Translations under genes and position numbers: made by a program
Shown here: positions 3,015-26,826 of the stretch, piece after piece
Position numbering within the stretch: the stretch's first letter is position 1
Layout of the letters: the number at the start of each line of letters is the position of its first letter
Notes under the pieces: model-generated
Database searches by the model: none
The model's input: only the letters and a program-made list of their open reading frames with translations
Told to the model about the DNA's origin: nothing
NCBI RefSeq assembly: GCF_000092105.1
Contig: NC_014148.1
Coordinates: 1,500,001 to 1,532,000 of the forward strand
Length of the DNA stretch: 32,000 nucleotides
DNA from: Planctopirus limnophila DSM 3776
GTDB lineage: Bacteria > Planctomycetota > Planctomycetia > Planctomycetales > Planctomycetaceae
Direction: 5' to 3'

Positions 3015-3440
3015 ATGGAGGATCCGCAGCACAGATTGAGTACTCAAAGGTTGATGATGGAACTGGACGATACGATCTGCTTTTGCTTCCATATCACTAA
3101 GCGGAAGGTGATGAACTTTATTCGTGTCCACCGCCCCCGTGTGGCCAGCCAGGTCAGTGAATGTGGAGGTGCAGGGACGGGTTGCGGCTGGTGTCGTAAG
3201 TATCTCAAAAGGTACTTTGAGGAGTCACAAGGGCGCATGCACTCGACATCGGGTGGACTGGATCCCCACGCAGAAGAAGCCCCGGAAATCACCCTCGAAG
3301 AGTATGCGACCTCTCGTGCGGCCTATATCCGGGCAGGTCACGGAAAACCAGCGGCAGGTGCCATCCCATTGCCAGGCGTCACCACAGAACCAACTCTTCA
3401 GCAGCCATCCGACCAGCAGTCGCTGGGTGGCCCCGGTTGA
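3015..3440 (+). CDS. BFD-like [2Fe-2S]-binding domain protein
   Basis: ICFCFHITKRKV...ECGGAGTGCGWCRKY gives the CxC...CxxC pattern of bacterioferritin-associated-ferredoxin-like domains. The start could instead be the MM at 3054. The last 21 nt overlap repeat copy A. Confidence 0.75.
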   Translation: MEDPQHRLSTQRLMMELDDTICFCFHITKRKVMNFIRVHRPRVASQVSECGGAGTGCGWCRKYLKRYFEESQGRMHSTSGGLDPHAEEAPEITLEEYATSRAAYIRAGHGKPAAGAIPLPGVTTEPTLQQPSDQQSLGGPG

Positions 3441-3590
3441 AATTCCGATTTCTACCCGGGTGGCGAAGCCACTGGCAGAGTCGCATCTGAGATCCTGAGA
3501 GACTCACATGGCAGTTCTTGCGCCAGCCAAAACTCTTATGCCTCCGGCACACAGGTACCTCGCAGACGAGCAACCTGTGCCACTCTGCGA
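3420..3590 (+). repeat. structured repeat element, copy A (candidate ~170 nt ncRNA)
   Basis: Direct repeat of 4203-4382. The ends pair (TCGCTGGGTGGC / GCCACTCTGCGA). Internal hairpins lie at 3431-3460, 3460-3472 (GTGGC-GAA-GCCAC), 3478-3505 and 3553-3576. Strand is assigned from G-U-compatible substitutions between the copies. Confidence 0.55.
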
Positions 3591-3760
3591 TTTGCAGTTT
3601 CTTATTGGGTATGATGGATTTATTGTTATTGCTGACCCACTTCGTGTTAGTCAACAACCGCCAAACAAAAGAATTTGATGATGTTTAAGGCGCTAGTTAC
3701 AGTGGTGGGAAACAATTGAGAATCATAGTGTAATATTGTGTGTAGATTGGAGCGTGCGTT

Positions 3761-4132
3761 GTGGAGCAAGTAGTTAAATTTCTTGACAGTCTTTGTGAGA
3801 AATTATTTACTGTTCATTTCGTCCTGTCTGTGCATGTCGAAAACTCAGACATCAATGTGACGCATATTAAGTCTTTTCTCACAACGGCGTCTAGTAGAGA
3901 TATGGCTTTTGAGAGAGCACGGGCTTCTGTTGAATCATTGAACGACAGCTATAGAAATAGGGAAGGATGTGTTGTTGTAGTTAATTGTGAGGGGGTTCAT
4001 GACGTTGAAGAGGTTCCTCTCATGGAGGTTGATGGTTACCTTGATGTAGCAAATTTTCAGTTTTCAGGTATGACTTCTGTTGAGGATCTCGTCAGTGATG
4101 GGATTCGCAAGGATCTGCCAGTTTTGAACTGA
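3761..4132 (+). CDS. hypothetical acidic protein in a low-GC insert
   Basis: 123-codon ORF with a GTG start and GGAG at 3749-3752, 8 nt upstream. It is the only sizeable ORF in a ~38-40% GC stretch. No motif recognised. Confidence 0.5.
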   Translation: MEQVVKFLDSLCEKLFTVHFVLSVHVENSDINVTHIKSFLTTASSRDMAFERARASVESLNDSYRNREGCVVVVNCEGVHDVEEVPLMEVDGYLDVANFQFSGMTSVEDLVSDGIRKDLPVLN

Positions 4133-4202
4133 GATACGTAAAGTCCGGGTCGCACCTGTTAAATGTTTATGTCATTACCCACAACTCAGAATTCAGGAAA
4201 TC

Positions 4203-4382
4203 TCGCAGGGTGGCCCCGGTGGAAATTCCGATTTCTACCGGGGTAGCCAAGCCACAAGAGGGCACTGGCAGAGTCGCATCTGAGATCTTCGGAGACTCAC
4301 ATGACAGTTCTTACGCCAGCCAAACCTCGTTTGCCTCCGGCCCACAGGTAGCTCGCAGACGGGCAACCTCTTCCACCCTGCG
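4203..4382 (+). repeat. structured repeat element, copy B (candidate ~180 nt ncRNA)
   Basis: Aligns along its whole length with 3420-3590, with about 20 substitutions and one 10-nt insertion by hand alignment. It has a closing helix (CGCAGGGTGG / CCACCCTGCG) and a 13-bp hairpin at 4214-4243 with a TCCG loop. Further hairpins lie at 4271-4298 and 4346-4369. Confidence 0.55.
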
Positions 4383-4435
4383 GAGCAGGCATGCGTAATC
4401 GACTCTTGACGCGCCGTTGATCTTCGGGATGAGTA

Positions 4436-4855
4436 TCAGTCGGTTTTGACTTCGATCTTCCTGGGGATGGCCTTCGTCGCGCGGGGGAGGAAAACCTCCA
4501 GCACGCCGTGGGCGAGTCTGGCTGTGATTTTCTCGTGGTCCACTTCGTCATTGAGAATAAATGATCTCAAAAAGTGCCCGATGGGATACTCCTGATGAAG
4601 AGTCTGGACCCCTTCCAGCCATTGAGTCTGAACACGACCGTAGAGTGTTAAACGGTTATCCTGAACCTGCAGCTCTAATGTTTCCAGCGTGACACCCGGC
4701 AGATCCGCCAGCAGAATGAGGCCATCCGGCCGCTCGAAAATATCAATCGGCGGTGTGAAGACCACTTGTTGTTCGACCGGCTGCTCAATAGCGGCATCTC
4801 CCGGGTGACGGAGTGATGCTCGACCGGACGGAATCTCAGGTTGTTCAGCTCTCAT
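4436..4855 (-). CDS. Hsp20/alpha-crystallin family small heat-shock protein
   Basis: PPIDIFERPDGLILLADLPGV...LTLYGRV...ITARLAHGVLEVFLPRA is a typical alpha-crystallin domain. Its ATG overlaps the stop of the upstream hsp20 by 11 nt. Confidence 0.9.
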   Translation of the reverse strand: MRAEQPEIPSGRASLRHPGDAAIEQPVEQQVVFTPPIDIFERPDGLILLADLPGVTLETLELQVQDNRLTLYGRVQTQWLEGVQTLHQEYPIGHFLRSFILNDEVDHEKITARLAHGVLEVFLPRATKAIPRKIEVKTD

Positions 4856-5402
4856 GAGATTCCCTTTCCTTGGGTTCGATCAATCCGGAGACCTGACCTG
4901 GCTCAGTCGCGATTCTCCGCGCCGGTGTGGGGATCGCTTCTGGGACCGACTCGACGGGAGGAGGATTTTCGGCAACAGCCGTAACCGTAATTTGCCTTGC
5001 GGGTTTGGGAGGCACTTTAGGCAGACGAATCAGGAGCACACCGTTGGAAAACTGTGCCGAGACCGCTTCTTCACGAATACCATCGGGCAGCTTGAGAGTA
5101 CGCTGCCATTTGCCGCGAGGTCGTTCCTGCCGGCGAAAGGCTTCGTCGGGAACACCTTCCGGGCCGAGGTGCCGCCCTTTAAGCGTGAGGGAACCTTCGT
5201 TGACGCTGATATCGAGTTCTTCGAGACGAATTCCGGGCAACTCTGCGGTTATCAGCAGTTGATCAGGAAGTTCATAGAGATTCACAGCAGGGTAATGTCT
5301 GACAACGCGCAGTCCTTGAAGAACACCAGCGAGCAGGGAATCGACCTCCTGCTCGAAGTTCTCCATGGCCTGCCAGGCATTTCCCCATCGAAAGATGGCC
5401 AT
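4845..5402 (-). CDS. Hsp20/alpha-crystallin family small heat-shock protein
   Basis: PAVNLYELPDQLLITAELPGI...LTLKGRH...VSAQFSNGVLLIRLPK matches the alpha-crystallin domain. AGGAG lies 9 nt upstream of the ATG at 5402. Confidence 0.9.
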   Translation of the reverse strand: MAIFRWGNAWQAMENFEQEVDSLLAGVLQGLRVVRHYPAVNLYELPDQLLITAELPGIRLEELDISVNEGSLTLKGRHLGPEGVPDEAFRRQERPRGKWQRTLKLPDGIREEAVSAQFSNGVLLIRLPKVPPKPARQITVTAVAENPPPVESVPEAIPTPARRIATEPGQVSGLIEPKERESHES

Positions 5403-10228: not shown

Positions 10229-12352
10229 ATGAATCTTGTGAATCGCCTTGCGGCAGAGACCAGCCTGTATCTCAATCAGCATGCTCAGAATCCGGTCGCC
10301 TGGCAGCCGTGGGATGATGAAGCCTGGAGACTTGCGCGCGAGCTCGATCGACCAGTCTTTCTGTCGATTGGGTACAGTGCCTGCCACTGGTGTCATGTGA
10401 TGGAGCACGAAAGCTTTGAGAATCCACGCATTGCCGAACTGCTCAATCAGTGGTTTGTGAGTATCAAGGTGGATCGCGAAGAGCGGCCAGACCTCGATCA
10501 GATCTATATGGCAGCCGTGATTGCCATGACTCAGCAGGGTGGCTGGCCAATGTCGGTCTTTCTCACACCCCAGGGACATCCGTTTTACGGAGGAACCTAT
10601 TTTCCGCCGACCAGCCGATACGGACGACCGGGATTCGCTGAAGTCCTCGCCGCCATTCACGACGCCTGGGAGAACCGTCGTGAAGTGGTGACTGAGCAGG
10701 CCTCTCAATTAACCATGACTGTCCACGATCAACTTTCTGAACGACAGGAACCAACGACTCTCCATGAGAATCTGCTGGAGAAGGCTGGCCGCACGCTGGT
10801 GCGAGTTTGTGATCGTGTGAATGGTGGTTTTGGACATGCCCCCAAGTTTCCTCATGCGATGGATTTACGGCTCGCCATGCGCCTCGCGCATCGATTCGAT
10901 ACGACGGAAACAGCCGAAGTGGCTGAGTTGGGGCTGACGGCCATGGCCAAAGGCGGGATTCATGACCACCTGGGAGGCGGCTTCGCCCGCTACTCGACAG
11001 ACGAAATCTGGCTGGTGCCGCACTTCGAAAAAATGCTGTATGACAACGCGTTGTTGCTGCAGGCTTATCTCGATGGCTGGCAGTTTAACAAGACTGATTT
11101 TTATCGCCGGACGGCCCAGTCGATCGTGCATTATGTATTACGGGAAATGCAGGTTCCCAGAGCCGAACTACCTGGTGGATTCTGTGCGGCCCAGGATGCT
11201 GACAGCGAGGGTGAAGAGGGGCGATTTTTCGTCTGGTCACAGTCCGAAATTCGCGATGTCCTCTCAGGAAGTGAACTGGGGAATGACGATTCGAGGCTTT
11301 TTGAGCGGGCCTACGGTGTGACCTCGGGAGGGAACTGGGAAGGTCATAACATTTTGAATTTGCCGAAGACGATCGCCGCACTCGGACGCGAACTCGGCAT
11401 GGCGGAAACTGCCCTCGAGCAAAAGCTTTCTCTGCTGAGGACGAAGTTGTTTGAGCACAGAAAGAACCGGATTGCCCCAGGTCGTGATGAAAAATTGATC
11501 GTCGCCTGGAATGGTTTGATGATTTCTGCACTGGCCCGTGCCGGACTGGTGCTCGATGATCAAGAGGCACTTCAGGCCGCTCAACGGGCCGCCCGCGTGA
11601 TTCTCGACATGGCGGAGAGCCTGCCGTATGGCTTGCCTCATTCGATTCAAAAGGGGCAGCCCAAGCATGGTGCCTATCTGGATGATTATGGATGCTTTTT
11701 GGAAGCACTGATCGAATTGTTCCTGGCGGATGGTGATCCCTCCTGGTTATCACGGGCTGTTCCACTGATCGACCGCCTGGTGAATGAGTTTCATGATGAT
11801 GAACAGGGCGGTTTTTACTTTACGAGCAGTCAAGCCGAGAAACTGATCAGTCGCAGTCGAGATTTTCAGGATAACGTGACACCCTCTGGCAATGCGGCTG
11901 TGGCCAATGCACTGCTGAAGTTCGGTCGAATCACGGGAGACGCCCGCAGTGAAGAGTTGGCACATGAAGTTCTTCAGGCTGCCTCGGGCCTGATGCAGCA
12001 ATCCACAATGGCCACAGCCCACTCGCTGGCCGCTCTCGATTGGTGGCTGGGTCCCAGTTACGAATGTGTGTATGTACCCGCTGAGACGACATCAACAACG
12101 GATTCTGAGCCTTTGAAACAGGATGCGGTTCAGCGAGTGGCTCATGAGCTGTACCTGCCGAACGTCCTGTTTCTCACAGGAAGAGCGCAATGGGAGGGGA
12201 CACTGGCAGCCGGGCTGGTGCAGGGGCGCCTGGCTCCTGCCAGTGAACCGGTGCTCTATGTCTGTCAAAAGGGAGTCTGCCAGCTCCCCGTGGTCGGGGA
12301 AGCAGCAATCATCGCCCGACTCAAAGGGCTGGCACAAAGCATAGATGAGTAA
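10229..12352 (+). CDS. thioredoxin-domain protein (DUF255 / YyaL family)
   Basis: [24 protein letters not shown]...[22 protein letters not shown]...[14 protein letters not shown] is the conserved DUF255 N-terminus. A long alpha/alpha-toroid-like region follows. ATG at 10229; the track ORF starts at GTG 10163. Confidence 0.9.
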
Positions 12353-17043: not shown

Positions 17044-17991
17044 ATGCCACCACGCTTCAAGCCAGTGCAGAATTCGGTCGCCAGTGCTCTACCAACGGCC
17101 TTGCCATCGACTCATGTCGAAGGGTTTGTGGCCTATCTTCAGGGGGAGTGCGGGCTCGCGCGGAACACGGTCATTTCCTACGAGCGCGATATCAAAAGAT
17201 TCAGCGACTGGTTCCATGAATCCGGTGTGGTGCGTGTGACAGACATCACGCTACAGGATCTCTCGGGTTACTTGAGATATCTGCACGAGTTGAAACTGGC
17301 GACCAGCACAATTGCCAGGCATCTGGTTTCGCTGAAGATGTTCTTTCGGTATCTCATGCTGGAAGGGATTCTCAAAGAGAGTGTCGCCGATCTGCTGAAC
17401 TCTCCCAAGCTTTGGGAGCATTTGCCAAAGGTGCTTTCAGAAGATGCGGTTAATCGTCTTCTCGATGCCCCGATGCATCAGGATTTGAATCCTTATCGCG
17501 ACCGTGCTTTGCTGGCGGTGTTGTATGCGACGGGTTGCCGGGCCAGTGAAGTCTGCAGTCTGAAAATGCGCGATCTGCAACTTGACGAAGGCTTTTGCCG
17601 CTGTGTGGGCAAAGGGAATAAGGAGCGTCTAGTCTCTTTGAATCCAGTCGCAGTCTCAGCACTGAAGACCTATCTGGCCAGAGAGCGCCCCGCTCGCGCG
17701 GGAACGAACCTCGACAGTCCGGTGTTTACCTCGAGATCTGGTCGATCCATCGACCGCATTCAGGTCTGGAAACTCGTCAAGAGGTATGCCTCACGGATTG
17801 GATTAAGCGATGCGGTCACGCCGCATACTTTGAGGCACAGTTTTGCCACCCATATGCTGGCCAATGGAGCCGAAATTCGTGCACTGCAGGAACTGCTGGG
17901 GCATGCCAGTATTCGCACAACTCAGATCTACACCCATGTCGAACATTCCCGGCTCAAGGCCATCCACAAACAATGCCACCCCCGCGGGTAA
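17044..17991 (+). CDS. xerD: site-specific tyrosine recombinase XerD
   Basis: ARNTVISYERDI, VLYATGCRASEV, GKGNKERLV, LRHSFATHML, LLGHASIRTTQIYTHV and the C-terminal LKAIHKQCHPRG all match XerD. The R..HxxR..Y catalytic residues are present. Confidence 0.9.
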   Translation: MPPRFKPVQNSVASALPTALPSTHVEGFVAYLQGECGLARNTVISYERDIKRFSDWFHESGVVRVTDITLQDLSGYLRYLHELKLATSTIARHLVSLKMFFRYLMLEGILKESVADLLNSPKLWEHLPKVLSEDAVNRLLDAPMHQDLNPYRDRALLAVLYATGCRASEVCSLKMRDLQLDEGFCRCVGKGNKERLVSLNPVAVSALKTYLARERPARAGTNLDSPVFTSRSGRSIDRIQVWKLVKRYASRIGLSDAVTPHTLRHSFATHMLANGAEIRALQELLGHASIRTTQIYTHVEHSRLKAIHKQCHPRG

Positions 17992-18061: not shown

Positions 18062-19429
18062 CTACACGCCTGGTGCCGGAGCAGCAGGAGTTGTTTCCGG
18101 AATCGGAGCGATCGGTGGTTTGGCGGTATCGGTTGGTGTCGGCACACCAGCAGCCGGAGCAGAAACTCCGCCGCAGCTTCCATCAGCACAGCCGCCGGCA
18201 CAAGCTCCAGTTACGCAACTGTTGCAGGCGGTCGTTGGGCAGACAGTCTGTGGCACTAACCGACAGACTTCGTAGTTTTCGACGCGGGGAACGCAACGCG
18301 TCACATAGCGAGTACAGTTCACGTTCTCAGTGCGAGGAACGCAGCGTGCCACGCGACGAGTGACCGTAAATGGCTCCTGACGGGTGACGCAGAACGGAAC
18401 GCGGCAAGTCTTGGTCTCGGTAACCATCTTGCAGGTGCGAACAGGAATCTTGCGGACGCATTCTTCGCTCACCATCTTGCAGGTGCGAACGGGTACCTTC
18501 TGGCTGACAACCTGTTCCGTCCAGCGGCAAACCTGCACAGGCACCTGATCAACAACCGTTTCGCAGGTCATGCGGCAAACTCGCTGAGGAACCTTGGTCA
18601 CGACCACTTCGGGAACGAGGCGGCAGACTGTCACCGGGCAGGACTGACGAACCTGACGTGTCACGTAAGTGGTGCAGGGGATCTGGCGTTCCACAACTTG
18701 TGGGCACCAGACACGACGGCAAACCACGGGACCTGGTCTTTGAACCATCGTCAACCGTGGACATCCACAGGCATCTGGGACCAGTGTCGGGCAGCAGCGA
18801 CCAGGGAGTTGAACCTGCTGTGTCACCCAGCGGCCACAATCCTGGCGAACTGTGCGGAAGGTTGTCACTGGCTCGCAGACATTGAAGCAGCGTTCCTGGT
18901 TGACAGTCTCTGTCACCTGACGCATGACCGTCTGGCGGCACTCACGCTCGATGGTTTCAAAGACTGGGCGCTGCACGACGCGACGACACTCGCGCATCTG
19001 TGTTTCATAAACCGGGCGGCGAACCGTGTAACTGCAGTCGCGGAAGCTGGTCTCAAAGACTGGCTTCTGAACTGTGTAACGCTCTTCGCGGCAACTGGTT
19101 TCGTAGACGGGCCGACAGACCTGGTACGATTGTTCCCGATACTGGGTTTCAACTACGTTGCGGTAGCAAGTTTCCTGAACATCTTCGAATGTCTGGTCAT
19201 AGACGGTGCGTTGAACTGTAAACTGCTGTGGTTCTTGAACGGTGTCGTACACAGTTCGCTGACAGGTTTGCCGTTCAACGCGGCAGGTGGTGTAGCAGGC
19301 CGTCGGCTGGCACGCTGTGGTTGGACAACAGCTATAGCTGGCTGCCCCGCAATACCTGGCCGCTTCGGCAAACTGTCCACTCGCCATCGTGACCAGCGTG
19401 ATCGCTGCGCTGATCCAAAAATTCTTCAT
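18062..19429 (-). CDS. secreted Cys-rich repeat protein (YTV-type repeats)
   Basis: Signal peptide MKNFWISAAITLVTMASGQFAEA. Repeated units such as ERYTVQKPVFET, CSYTVRRPVYET and VVQRPVFET are followed by many VCR/TCK units. I count about 43 Cys in 455 aa. The tail is rich in Gly, Ala and Pro. Confidence 0.8.
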   Translation of the reverse strand: MKNFWISAAITLVTMASGQFAEAARYCGAASYSCCPTTACQPTACYTTCRVERQTCQRTVYDTVQEPQQFTVQRTVYDQTFEDVQETCYRNVVETQYREQSYQVCRPVYETSCREERYTVQKPVFETSFRDCSYTVRRPVYETQMRECRRVVQRPVFETIERECRQTVMRQVTETVNQERCFNVCEPVTTFRTVRQDCGRWVTQQVQLPGRCCPTLVPDACGCPRLTMVQRPGPVVCRRVWCPQVVERQIPCTTYVTRQVRQSCPVTVCRLVPEVVVTKVPQRVCRMTCETVVDQVPVQVCRWTEQVVSQKVPVRTCKMVSEECVRKIPVRTCKMVTETKTCRVPFCVTRQEPFTVTRRVARCVPRTENVNCTRYVTRCVPRVENYEVCRLVPQTVCPTTACNSCVTGACAGGCADGSCGGVSAPAAGVPTPTDTAKPPIAPIPETTPAAPAPGV

Positions 19430-26442: not shown

Positions 26443-26476
26443 GTCGCTTTCCAAGCAATGTGGGCGCTCTGTGTGC

Positions 26477-26506
26477 CATGCTTGCAGCTCTGGGCAAGCA
26501 TGTTTT
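26477..26506 (+). terminator. hairpin plus short T-tract after ilvN (terminator/attenuator candidate)
   Basis: CATGCTTGC (26477-26485) and GCAAGCATG (26494-26502) form a 9-bp stem with an 8-nt loop, followed by TTTT. Confidence 0.45.
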
Positions 26507-26826
26507 CGCAACCACCGGCGCGCTCTTATCTTCTGGGAATCGTCTAAGCCGAATCGATGCGGGTTCGCACTTTCTGATGGAATGACTCCTCTGACAGGAA
26601 TTCGACCGCGCGGGAATTGACGGCCATCTGCGAACTTATCGCACCTTTTCTTGCAATTGGTGCCCACTCGGCTGAAAATCTGCGGAAATTGATTAAACTC
26701 ACTTGCTCATAGTTGATGCCTAAGAAGGTTCGACCACTTTTGAGGGGCATCCTGGTTTGTTCTGTCTGTTAATCAACAGAGCGAGACTCGTTGCTTTTTG
26801 ACACTCTACGAAAGAATCACAGCACC

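Follow-up and report, generated by a model that had tools for sequence, protein, structure and literature searches.

The bfd-hsp20 region of Planctopirus limnophila

A 32,000-nt stretch of contig NC_014148.1 from P. limnophila DSM 3776 (hereafter the window; all positions are counted from its first nucleotide) contains a BFD-like gene and an Hsp20 gene, with two copies of a repeat sequence and one small gene between them. The features of this region are as follows.

3015..3440, + strand: BFD-like [2Fe-2S] gene Plim_1171 (bfd), left flank
3438..3440, + strand: stop codon TGA of the BFD-like gene, inside the 5′ hairpin of the element
3420..3590, + strand: copy A, full-length element of 171 nt with a copy-specific 10-nt deletion
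3420..3471, + strand: left unit of copy A; leader and tag TCGCTGGGTGG at 3420-3430
3431-3460, + strand: left hairpin of copy A, 13-bp stem with T-T mismatch and TCCG loop
3461-3471, + strand: left mini-hairpin of copy A, TGGC-GAA-GCCA
3470..3516, + strand: central hairpin of copy A, CACTG..GAGTC-GCA-TCTGA..loop..GACTC..CAGTT
3539..3590, − strand: right unit of copy A, an inverted and diverged left unit; read on the − strand, leader and tag TCGCAGAGTGG, then a 13-bp stem with TCTG loop (3550-3579)
3539-3549, − strand: right mini-hairpin of copy A
3591..4202, + strand: low-GC cargo segment between A and B, 612 bp, GC 0.405
3761..4132, + strand: cargo gene Plim_1173, 123 aa, DUF4288 family
4203..4382, + strand: copy B, full-length element of 180 nt
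4203..4254, + strand: left unit of copy B; leader and tag 4203-4213, hairpin 4214-4243, mini-hairpin 4244-4254
4263..4309, + strand: central hairpin of copy B
4332..4382, − strand: right unit of copy B, inverted; mini-hairpin 4332-4342, hairpin 4343-4373, tag and leader 4373-4382
4382..4395, + strand: GGAGCAGGCATGCG, right half of an ancestral terminator-like hairpin, forming the right insertion junction
4436..4855, − strand: Hsp20 gene Plim_1174, right flank

Copies A and B are direct repeats with 87-88% identity, as measured with MAFFT and a repeat finder, and their alignment displays ~21 substitutions and one 10-nt indel. This re-measurement agrees with the coordinates and the ~20 substitutions plus 10-nt indel of the initial annotation. 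There is no third copy within the 32-kb window. In the family alignment described below, every other full copy carries the 10 nt that are missing from copy A; thus copy A alone has undergone a deletion at this point. A short hairpin was formerly thought to be remodelled at the indel, but copy B retains the family sequence TAGC-CAA-GCCA with one mismatch, and the indel position in copy B is just 3′ of this small hairpin, with no new hairpin having a 12-nt loop.

As first described, the two copies bracket a low-GC insert with a single gene. This gene encodes a DUF4288 protein, and the GC content of the insert is below that of the window (0.538). Also confirmed is the overlap between copy A and the last 21 nt of the BFD-like open reading frame, i.e., the element starts 21 nt before the stop codon. 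A coding function was considered and rejected, as both strands of the element have open reading frames, the indels measure 10, 18 and 2 nt and one copy has an in-frame stop. A precomputed HopBF1_kinase label for a 56-aa open reading frame at 3508-3678 was not reproducible. The template and variable repeats of a diversity-generating retroelement (DGR) were rejected as well; the mismatches show no adenine specificity, and a reverse transcriptase is lacking.

Architecture of the element

The basic unit is ~55 nt in length. A (T)CGCAG leader and a GTGG/GTAG tag come first; they are followed by a 13-bp stem, which contains a conserved T-T mismatch and is capped by a TCYG tetraloop, and then by a 4-bp mini-hairpin. 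Two inverted units around a central hairpin of ~50-80 nt, the best-conserved helix set of the family, make up the full element. Over ~55 nt the 5′ arm can be aligned with the reverse complement of the 3′ arm at 63% identity (hand count), and this inverted-doublet alignment is seen in all full copies and in a variant from contigs L035 and L018. Read each on its own strand, both arms keep the tag, the mismatch and the loop; the changes between the two inner stems are compensatory. In an alignment of 19 arms, 82.6% of cells are paired vs 67.6% in shuffles (0/500), and cells changed on both sides number 40 vs 14 in shuffles (0/500). In most arms the GTGG or GTAG tag immediately precedes the 13-bp stem on its 5′ side; a few arms have a degenerate tag (TCTC, TCGC, ATAG, GTGA).

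The ends of the element are CGCAG...CTGCG and form imperfect inverted repeats, TCGCAGGGTGGCC...GGCCACCCTGCGA. Terminal inverted repeats are present in copy A as TCGCWGGGTGGC... and ...GCCACYCTGCGA, which match at 16/20 positions as read by eye. Mirror-image arms that share tag, mismatch and loop thus follow the logic of terminal inverted repeats in DNA and not that of one RNA strand.

The bfd-hsp20 locus in Planctopirus genomes

A comparison of orthologous loci, suggested in the initial annotation, shows that the segment 3420-4382 as a whole is an insertion. In P. ephydatiae the bfd-hsp20 gap is 118 nt with no insert, and the ancestral terminator-like hairpin is intact at this empty site. The P. 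limnophila gap has one cargo gene, and that of P. hydrillae has two, in the order E1-ORF126-E2(truncated)-ORF230-E3, where E1 to E3 are elements. In the VFQR01 metagenome-assembled genome (MAG), mosaic repeats are followed by element-SUKH-1 gene-element. Elements are present at every cassette edge of the locus. The bfd-hsp20 intergenic region is a hotspot whose content varies from species to species.

P. limnophila and P. hydrillae have a common right junction, by which copy B is the positional orthologue of the hsp20-proximal element E3 of P. hydrillae; the hsp20-proximal element of the VFQR01 MAG is truncated and lies at the same position as copy B. The left junction in P. limnophila and a sister MAG directly follows bfd ...CAGCAGTCGC. 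A deletion joined the 3′ end of bfd to copy A; the element thereby supplies the last codons of the gene, and its 5′ hairpin the stop codon. Single elements show no clear target-site duplication, and (C)GGAGC is a possible duplication around the whole array of P. hydrillae and VFQR01 when compared with the empty site of P. ephydatiae.

Copies at other loci

Elements occur in several genomic contexts. A pattern scan of metagenome sequences revealed five + strand copies within 3.3 kb of a Planctopirus MAG contig (L036), which also has one − strand unit 9.5 kb from its + strand copies, and a ~140-nt long-hairpin variant in two metagenome contigs. In another MAG (L040) a full copy lies downstream of lpxB, and a protein search with the open frame of the element gave one match (P0121), which leads to this lpxB copy. 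A further copy is situated downstream of a transporter gene. Sequence L049 has a solo unit, and one P. hydrillae copy has its 5′ hairpin precisely deleted. Across genomes the element is thus found as full, truncated and solo-unit forms, and as chimeras with other repeat modules.

Read assemblies of P. limnophila break exactly at the first bases of the lpxB element and, in copy A, at positions 6-8. The breaks imply that P. limnophila probably has a third copy besides the two seen in the sequence. Six copies are found on one 14-kb MAG contig, and the 20 kb of P. ephydatiae that were examined have no copy. A scan of a contig collection with GGCAGAGTCGCATCTGAG gave nine chance matches from unrelated phyla, extending only 18-26 nt. 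Four patterns used on viral contigs gave none or one chance match each, and a BLAST search of plasmid and phage collections with copy B gave no match.

Cargo genes and cassette edges

The cargo gene of P. limnophila, Plim_1173, is one of a small family whose members are homologous over their full length. AlphaFold models the DUF4288 protein with confidence (pLDDT 93.4), and no solved structure resembling the model was found in the PDB (best fold match, E = 0.14). Cargo GC is 0.40-0.48 in all segments vs 0.52-0.55 for the host genomes. The VFQR01 MAG cargo encodes a SUKH-1/SMI1_KNR4 immunity-family protein and is the only cargo with a recognised immunity domain; scans of the cargo open reading frames for defence systems and with NCBIfam revealed nothing. 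One cargo still holds the 3′ end of an upstream partner gene, as an orphan module would. The open reading frame at 1-519 of L049 was considered as a toxin and rejected, with neither Pfam nor PDB support.

L044 and L049 share the ORF124/126 cassette at 93% identity, and the homology extends from directly after CTGCGA to the next element. L036 and L040 share the ORF146 segment at 91% identity, with the upstream elements only 80% identical. In three cassettes the stop codon is 0-18 nt from the next element, and 2/8 cargo open reading frames are antisense to the element. In the sequences compared, the elements lie at the boundaries of small low-GC accessory genes.

Structure at the RNA and DNA levels

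All five helices named in the initial annotation are present in both copy A and copy B. Relative to dinucleotide shuffles, the + strand has fold z scores of −3.35 (A) and −4.78 (B), and the − strand has −2.21 (A) and −4.42 (B). The bias towards G-T pairs on the + strand, formerly taken as a sign of RNA, stands for copies A and B, which display 4-5 G-T and 0 A-C at paired positions, but it does not extend to the family, where + strand non-Watson-Crick pairs are 24 G-U vs 40 A-C.

Nine full copies were aligned. Paired cells are 79.0% vs 77.9% in shuffled alignments (23/500), pairs changed on both sides are 9 vs 6.1 (40/500), and the covariation score is 0.101 vs 0.086 (21/500). The central hairpin is 87-100% paired in the nine copies and shows some compensatory changes (G-C to C-G, C-G to U-A). 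In diverged copies the closing helix and the 3′ hairpin break down to 72-77% pairing. Structural RNAs are expected to show compensatory changes above background and a strand-specific tolerance of G-U pairs; in the family the former barely exceed the shuffles and the latter is lacking.

A search of the whole window with Rfam 15 at the gathering threshold gave no match. At E ≤ 10, positions 3300-4500 gave four chance matches of snoRNA type (E 4-10), none of which is on either copy. A consensus scan detected no promoter-like site in or beside either element, and terminator-like sites in or beside the elements are no more frequent than in shuffles; the sole terminator-like hairpin, at 3585-3597, joins the last six bases of copy A to the flank. 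An att duplication of the tRNA or tmRNA type, a retron, and an ωRNA or bridge RNA were each rejected, as there is no adjacent integrase, reverse transcriptase, TnpB or IS110 gene.

Mobilising enzyme and proposed mechanism

No transposase, RAYT or integrase adjoins the readable copies. A Pfam search for Y1_Tnp found none in the window, in L036 or in the scanned parts of L044, L045 and L049, and the arrays in the window, L044, L045 and L036 have no recombinase gene next to them. The only recombinase in the window, at 17044-17991, is a housekeeping XerD 13 kb away, with 345.5 bits to XerD (cut-off 329.6). Its assignment as an integron integrase was rejected, as it scores 126 bits vs a cut-off of 265 and is above the XerD equivalog cut-off.

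The dispersed copies, their position at cassette edges and the species-variable site make it most likely that A and B are mobile DNA, or DNA prone to recombination, rather than a new RNA gene. They are probably members of a previously undescribed Planctopirus family of palindromic, non-coding DNA repeats, dispersed and modular, that acts at the DNA level. Each arm would form a hairpin when the DNA is single-stranded, or the ends would serve as terminal inverted repeats, and an enzyme encoded elsewhere in the genome would recognise the folded arms or the ends. As a first guess this enzyme may be a Y1 HuH transposase (RAYT or class-3 TnpA_Y1-like), with a DDE transposase as the alternative; the (C)GGAGC duplication, if real, fits a DDE transposase better than a HuH enzyme. 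Class-3 Y1 HuH genes in Planctomycetes have unusual secondary structures in their flanks (PMC6006769). Once several copies are present, they could double as portable homology or recombination sites, whereby cassettes between two direct copies may be inserted, deleted or exchanged.

Alternative explanations

As direct repeats around foreign DNA, A and B could be taken for a simple local duplication, or for the attL and attR scars of a single integration, with no wider family. This is scarcely credible and is already refuted by homologous copies at unrelated loci and in other genomes. Moreover, A and B are 88% identical to each other and no less similar, again at 88%, to the lpxB copy from another genome, B has a positional orthologue in P. 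hydrillae, and the junction of A is a secondary deletion. A second alternative is a functional structured RNA from the + strand, in the form of a cis-acting UTR structure or of a small RNA that moves along with the cassettes and regulates how they are expressed or how stable they are. Copies A and B fold well below shuffles on the + strand, every non-Watson-Crick pair in these two copies alone is G-U on that strand, the central hairpin is maintained with compensatory exchanges, and most elements are co-oriented with the flanking open reading frames. Since the central hairpin is well kept and most cargo genes are co-oriented, a role at the RNA level is conceivable, but it is very unlikely. The − strand folds about equally well, covariation in the family is near the shuffle level with A-C exceeding G-U on the + strand, and two of the helices weaken in diverged copies. 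A mirror-image conservation of arms is unexpected for one RNA strand, one unit is antisense and lies between two + strand genes, there is no Rfam family match at any threshold, and promoter and terminator scans are at background level. The proposal of a + strand structured RNA rather than a DNA repeat is thus not retained, given the lack of an Rfam match, the dispersed copies, the near-shuffle covariation and the excess of A-C over G-U. The initial annotation had itself named REP- or MITE-type copies and helices that weaken with more homologues as evidence against an RNA, and this is largely what is found. RNA from the elements would then be a by-product, or may have a secondary 3′-UTR hairpin effect like that of classical REPs.

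The elements might also be attC-like sites of an integron-like or rAID-like platform, in which folded hairpins are recombined by a tyrosine recombinase encoded elsewhere. The conserved mismatch would be a recognition mark, and leader-ORF-element units would be captured singly at a few hotspots, many of them immunity-type orphans. Cargo at one locus varies in four genomes (0, 1, 2, or a mosaic plus 1), cassette homology is bounded by the element termini, and the short distance from stop codon to next element in three cassettes matches an order of ORF, then attC. Cargo GC is skewed low, one cargo is of the SUKH-1/SMI1_KNR4 family and another is like an orphan module; rAID-1 arrays combine low GC, intergenic repeats and immunity genes (10.1101/471110). 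However no integron integrase or dedicated recombinase is found beside any array, the nearby one being XerD. The elements lack the RYYYAAC/GTTRRRY boxes and have the opposite GTT/AAC polarity, copies in solo, truncated or chimeric form are found away from arrays, and cargo orientation is mixed. An immunity role of DUF4288 is putative, and its model has no similar solved structure. It is thus considered unlikely that the elements are recombination sites of an unrecognised Planctomycetes cassette platform, comparable in function to integrons or rAID arrays but with a different site (a mirrored, tagged double-hairpin), a recombinase or HuH enzyme elsewhere and small immunity-type cargo captured at a few hotspots such as bfd-hsp20.

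Significance

Mobile and repeated DNA is poorly catalogued in Planctomycetes. The palindromic DNA repeat family described here explains breaks in Planctopirus assemblies, the altered C-terminus and stop codon of bfd, and the differences between sister species at bfd-hsp20. If the elements delimit exchangeable cassettes, one of them with a SUKH-1 immunity-type gene, they offer a simple and testable model of how one lineage outside the proteobacteria gathers small accessory genes without a classical integron. There is also a caution for structure-based RNA discovery, as palindromic doublets can mimic multi-hairpin RNAs, and a G-U strand bias drawn from two copies can disappear with more copies.

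Comparison with known repeat and cassette systems

REPINs and BIMEs are inverted doublets of REPs and are mobilised by RAYT Y1 HuH transposases. The architecture of the Planctopirus element is that of an extragenic palindrome of the REPIN/BIME type or of a MITE. As in REPs, a GTGG/GTAG tetranucleotide is directly 5′ of an imperfect palindrome, and as in REPINs and BIMEs, the units are paired in an inverted doublet. The elements are extragenic and often just past stop codons, with occasional overlap of gene ends, and they also resemble these repeats in clustering, in forming mosaics with other repeat modules and in the similarity of copies within a genome. GTAG-tagged REPs, including a GTGG variant and members from Planctomycetes, have been documented (PMC3733652). 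There are also differences. With its conserved leader and two hairpins, the Planctopirus unit reaches ~55 nt, whereas REPs are 20-40 nt; the arms of the doublet are only ~63% alike with different inner stems, and the spacer is a conserved hairpin of ~50-80 nt. Copy number may be low, judging from the sequences covered, and classical REPs number in the hundreds. In addition, the Planctopirus elements mark the edges of variable cassettes, and no RAYT is linked to them in the sequences scanned.

The resemblance to MITEs lies in a length of 140-200 nt, the lack of coding capacity, imperfect terminal inverted repeats, strong folding and dispersal, as well as in the breaks caused in assemblies and the presence of two copies flanking a passenger gene. 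It differs in that the flanking copies are direct and not inverted, solo half-units exist, and no autonomous IS with the element's ends is found among the sequences retrieved.

Integron attC sites and CALINs likewise have structured imperfect palindromes between small, often orphan, low-GC open reading frames, an array content that varies among close relatives and a conserved unpaired base in the stem. Known attC sites are 57-141 nt; the Planctopirus element is longer and multi-hairpin, occurs as single copies at other loci too and has no IntI. Its ends lack RYYYAAC/GTTRRRY, and an internal GGTTG...CAACC has the opposite polarity on both strands. The rAID-1 arrays of Bacteroidales, with their low GC, intergenic repeats and immunity genes, are by definition sets of co-oriented genes with a 5′ XerD-like recombinase gene (10.1101/471110). 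Although the Planctopirus arrays are short (1-2 genes) and have no adjoining recombinase, they share with rAID-1 the low-GC arrays of small genes, an immunity-family cargo, repetitive intergenic DNA and evidence of active gene acquisition.

Copies A and B and their flanks

The block and the genes around it are arranged in the window as follows.

3015-3440, + strand, BFD-like ferredoxin gene Plim_1171, flanking the block
3420-3590, copy A, 171 nt, direct repeat with copy B
3761-4132, cargo gene Plim_1173, the one real gene between the copies
4203-4382, copy B, 180 nt, direct repeat with copy A
4436-4855, - strand, Hsp20 gene Plim_1174, flanking the block
4845-5402, - strand, second Hsp20 gene, flank

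Locus tags are from exact protein look-ups. Copies A and B are 87-88% identical, with ~21 substitutions and one 10-nt indel, and the segment between them is 612 bp with a GC of 0.405, versus 0.538 for the window. The initial annotation, which described two direct repeats with about 20 substitutions and a 10-nt indel around a low-GC single-gene insert, is thus borne out, and all five helices it named are present in both copies. BLAST and a repeat profile revealed no further copies in the 32-kb window.

A small terminator-like hairpin, CTGCGATTTGCAG, spans the end of copy A and its flank (3585-3597), with TTTCTTATTG after it; short palindromes of a similar kind come after the element in two Planctopirus MAGs, L036 and L040. 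A 56-aa ORF (3508-3678) runs from the 3′ part of copy A into the beginning of the insert. A read assembly annotates it as a gene with the precomputed Pfam label HopBF1_kinase, for which our own Pfam scan gave no match at E≤1. Its insert-derived in-frame tail, LQFLIGYDGFIVIADPLRVSQQPPNKRI-stop, may be what remains of a partner gene upstream, as in another cassette.

A mirrored double-hairpin unit

The 5′ end of the element was compared with the reverse complement of its own 3′ end. The two halves of each element are homologous, and the common unit of ~55 nt is composed as follows.

leader, (T)CGCAG
tag, GTGG, or GTAG in some copies
13-bp stem with a T-T mismatch at a constant position
TCYG loop
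4-bp mini-hairpin, TGGC-NAA-GCCA

The 5′ and 3′ arms are about 63% identical (hand count). The inner four stem pairs are wholly different between arms yet complementary, GAAAT/ATTTC versus GCTCG/CGAGC. In an alignment of 19 arms the two hairpins are 82.6% paired, versus 67.6% in shuffles (0/500), and slid controls give 35-45%. Changes on both sides of a pair are found in 40 cells versus 14 expected (0/500), a signal owed mostly to the division into 5′ and 3′ arms and hence representing few events. Both arms keep the same features, each read on its own strand. Since the halves are homologous as reverse complements with features kept per strand, the full element is an inverted doublet of the tagged stem-loop unit around a central hairpin of ~50-80 nt. 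The “closing helix” of the initial annotation is the pairing of the leader-and-tag segments, i.e., a terminal inverted repeat.

RNA or DNA level

The initial annotation proposed a + strand structured RNA. No known family was matched on either copy: Rfam 15 at gathering thresholds gave no match in the whole window, and at E≤10 over 3300-4500 only four chance snoRNA-type matches, none on copies A or B. On the + strand, the folds of both copies are more stable than those of dinucleotide shuffles (z -3.35 for A, -4.78 for B), and the - strand is nearly as good (z -2.21 and -4.42). In five full copies 81.3% of cells are paired, the same as in shuffles, with two compensatory pairs. Nine full copies show 79.0% paired cells versus 77.9% in shuffles (23/500), 9 pairs changed on both sides versus 6.1 (40/500) and a covariation score of 0.101 versus 0.086 (21/500), margins no greater than related unconstrained sequences can yield. 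The central hairpin is the best-kept helix in these nine copies (87-100% paired); the closing helix and the 3′ hairpin with its adjoining mini-hairpin are just 72-77% paired.

The proposal had also relied on G-T pairs as a mark of the + strand. This holds for A and B alone (4-5 G-T, no A-C), but the bias is gone in five copies (14 G-T versus 13 A-C) and reversed in nine (24 G-U versus 40 A-C). One unit lies antisense, between two + strand genes. We conclude that the copies do not demonstrate selection for one + strand RNA fold. Conservation of the arms as mirror images argues instead for recognition of the element at the DNA level.

Other copies and forms

A metagenome scan with an 18-mer of the 5′ hairpin gave three true relatives (L036, L035 and L018) amid chance matches. 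L036 (VFQR01001914.1, a Planctopirus-like MAG) has five + strand copies within 3.3 kb, plus a single - strand unit at a distance of 9.5 kb. Two of the five are full-length; in the other three the 5′ ~60 nt are joined to a different continuation of ~190 nt, which contains the recurrent hairpin CATGCTTGC..GCAAGCATG and another repeated module. In contigs L035 and L018 the repeat takes the form of a ~140-nt long-hairpin variant that has perfect-type terminal inverted repeats of 18 nt. When the translated element was used as a protein query, the single match was a spurious ORF, through which a full copy was located downstream of lpxB in L040, a MAG close to P. limnophila. Because P. limnophila read assemblies stop exactly at the first bases of the lpxB element, and also start at positions 6-8 of copy A, a third copy in this genome is probable, on the strength of assembly ends and with its own sequence unseen. 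Altered forms are the following.

L049 (VFQR01 MAG) 965-1002, solo tagged hairpin, 38 nt
L044 (P. hydrillae) 11262-11412, 5′ hairpin precisely deleted
L036 13098-13298, 18-nt insertion

With copies at other loci and in other genomes, the element is a dispersed, modular repeat. Synteny between L040 (1-400) and L036 (1977-1560) is lost precisely at a solo unit's left end (..AACCGC/AGGGTGG), beyond which the two MAGs carry different genes; this is a further rearrangement boundary at an element end.

The bfd-hsp20 hotspot

Orthologous loci, obtained via cluster members of the BFD protein, show the following bfd-hsp20 gaps.

P. ephydatiae (L041): 118 nt, no element, intact terminator-like hairpin CATGCTTGCGGCTCGGAGCAAGCATG
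P. limnophila (window): A, DUF4288 gene, B
P. hydrillae (L044): 2.1 kb, left half of the CATGCTTGCGGCTCGGAGCAAGCATG hairpin, E1 (variant 5′ arm), ORF126, E2 (5′-deleted), ORF230, E3, right half of the hairpin
VFQR01 MAG (L045): left junction as in P. hydrillae, ~0.9 kb of other mosaic repeats, element, SMI1_KNR4/SUKH-1 gene (Pfam E 4.8e-7), right-truncated second element

Thus the locus is a hotspot that varies by species. Since P. limnophila and P. hydrillae have the right junction CCACCCTGCG/GAGCARGCATG in common, copy B is the positional orthologue of E3. A target duplication of 4-6 bp may be reflected in the left junction of P. hydrillae and the VFQR01 MAG, ...CTCGGAGC/, together with the right junction of P. 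hydrillae, /GGAGCAAGC; this putative duplication overlaps terminal bases of the element itself. The P. limnophila left junction, shared with the sister MAG L003, is bfd ...CAGCAGTCGC/, a point at which relatives continue with CTGAGTAG (stop). Evidently bfd was fused to the element by a deletion with TCGC microhomology, which accounts for the start of copy A inside bfd and for the element supplying the last bfd codons and the TGA. The C-terminus of the BFD-like protein (3015-3440) is species-dependent as the 3′ end of its gene is fused to the repeat: ...QQSLGGPG-stop from element codons in P. limnophila, ...SPE-stop in P. ephydatiae and P. hydrillae.

Cargo and cassette boundaries

All element-enclosed segments have a GC of 0.40-0.48, versus 0.52-0.55 for their own genomes, and are mutually unrelated. 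Two cargoes are found again at other loci, and their edges coincide with element ends. P. hydrillae shares the ORF124/126 segment, at 93% identity over ~545 nt, with another locus of the VFQR01 MAG (L049); homology begins right after the terminal CTGCGA of E1 and stops ~18 nt past the stop codon, where E2 starts. In L049 the matching sequence comprises the 3′ end of a longer ORF upstream, then ORF124, and is followed by a solo unit. The ORF146 segment is 91% identical between different loci of L036 and L040, with upstream elements only ~80% identical. The spacing between the ORF stop and the following element is 0-18 nt in three cassettes. The low-GC cargo, shared cassette edges and stop-element spacing fit elements that would act as recombination or transposition boundaries.

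In L049 (1-909) the longer ORF is followed, after 16 nt, by ORF124/126 in a toxin-immunity-like layout; no family match was found for the pair. P. hydrillae (L044 10725-11258) has just the last ~150 nt of the upstream ORF and the small gene between two elements, as in an orphan module.

The Plim_1173 product (123 aa) has 23 representative homologues among 1.84 billion cluster representatives, nearly all ~125 aa, most aligned over almost the full length and 22 with a DUF4288 match. Its AlphaFold model is confident (pLDDT 93.4) with no significant PDB neighbour, and the protein has no NCBIfam or PADLOC match. Analogy to the SUKH-1 cargo alone suggests a possible immunity role.

Other repeats

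A second recurrent hairpin, CATGCTTGC-NGCTCNGN-GCAAGCATG, is found at 26473-26510 of the window, followed by TTTT and just past the acetolactate synthase small-subunit gene. There are eight in the Planctopirus loci read; the others are as follows.

L041 10426-10451
L036 11165, 12111, 14221
L045 6199, 6746
L047 4-29

This is also the ancestral bfd/hsp20 intergenic hairpin that is split by the element array, and contig breaks fall inside it. It seems to form a repeat family of its own, REP-like or of terminator type. A further conserved module of ~55-80 nt (..AAAAACGAGCCGGAAGCGTAAGCGACGGAAC..CCCATACGATTGGCTATA), not found in the window, lies ahead of the element in 4 of 5 cases in L036 (11025-11079, 11275, 12221, 13033, 14082). 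The bfd-hsp20 gap of L045 (6010-6943) holds a mosaic of repeats, with three copies of a ~75-150 nt module with hairpin CCCTCGCCCACGTCTTCGTGGGAGAGGG and two of a GGGTGG-tagged hairpin, CCCGGCCA..TGGCCGGG; the 198-aa ORF called there is probably spurious. Direct repeats of 48-nt period at 18417-19072 lie within a - strand gene (18062-19429) for a YTV-repeat protein (PF07639); these are coding and have no relation to the A/B elements.

Comparison with known systems

Neither the window nor the loci scanned with Pfam contain a transposase, Y1 HuH protein or integron integrase. At 17044-17991, 13 kb away from the elements, lies a gene for a tyrosine recombinase that is XerD above the NCBIfam equivalog cut-off; this score and its conserved position in P. 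ephydatiae indicate that it is probably housekeeping. Cargo bounded by elements may recall an integron-like capture platform with the elements as its sites, a reading that we consider unlikely; the element differs from attC in having no attC core sites, and no integrase at the loci scanned. The Bacteroidales rAID-1 arrays (10.1101/471110) are similar in their low-GC cargo, intergenic repeats and immunity-family gene, but differ in that no recombinase adjoins the Planctopirus arrays.

Palindromes with a GTAG tag or its GTGG variant, some of them from Planctomycetes, have been described together with long-terminus inverted repeats beside Y1 transposases (PMC3733652), as has a class-3 Y1 HuH family, mainly of Planctomycetes, flanked by atypical secondary structures (PMC6006769). 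The closest kinds are REP/REPIN/BIME elements and MITEs. Like REP/REPIN/BIME elements, the Planctopirus unit is a tagged palindrome that forms doublets, is extragenic and occurs in mosaics; it exceeds a REP in length and has no linked RAYT at the loci read. The finding is real yet not a new structured RNA gene: the element is a new extragenic palindromic or miniature mobile repeat, with a distinctive mirrored double-hairpin unit, at a cassette-like hotspot.
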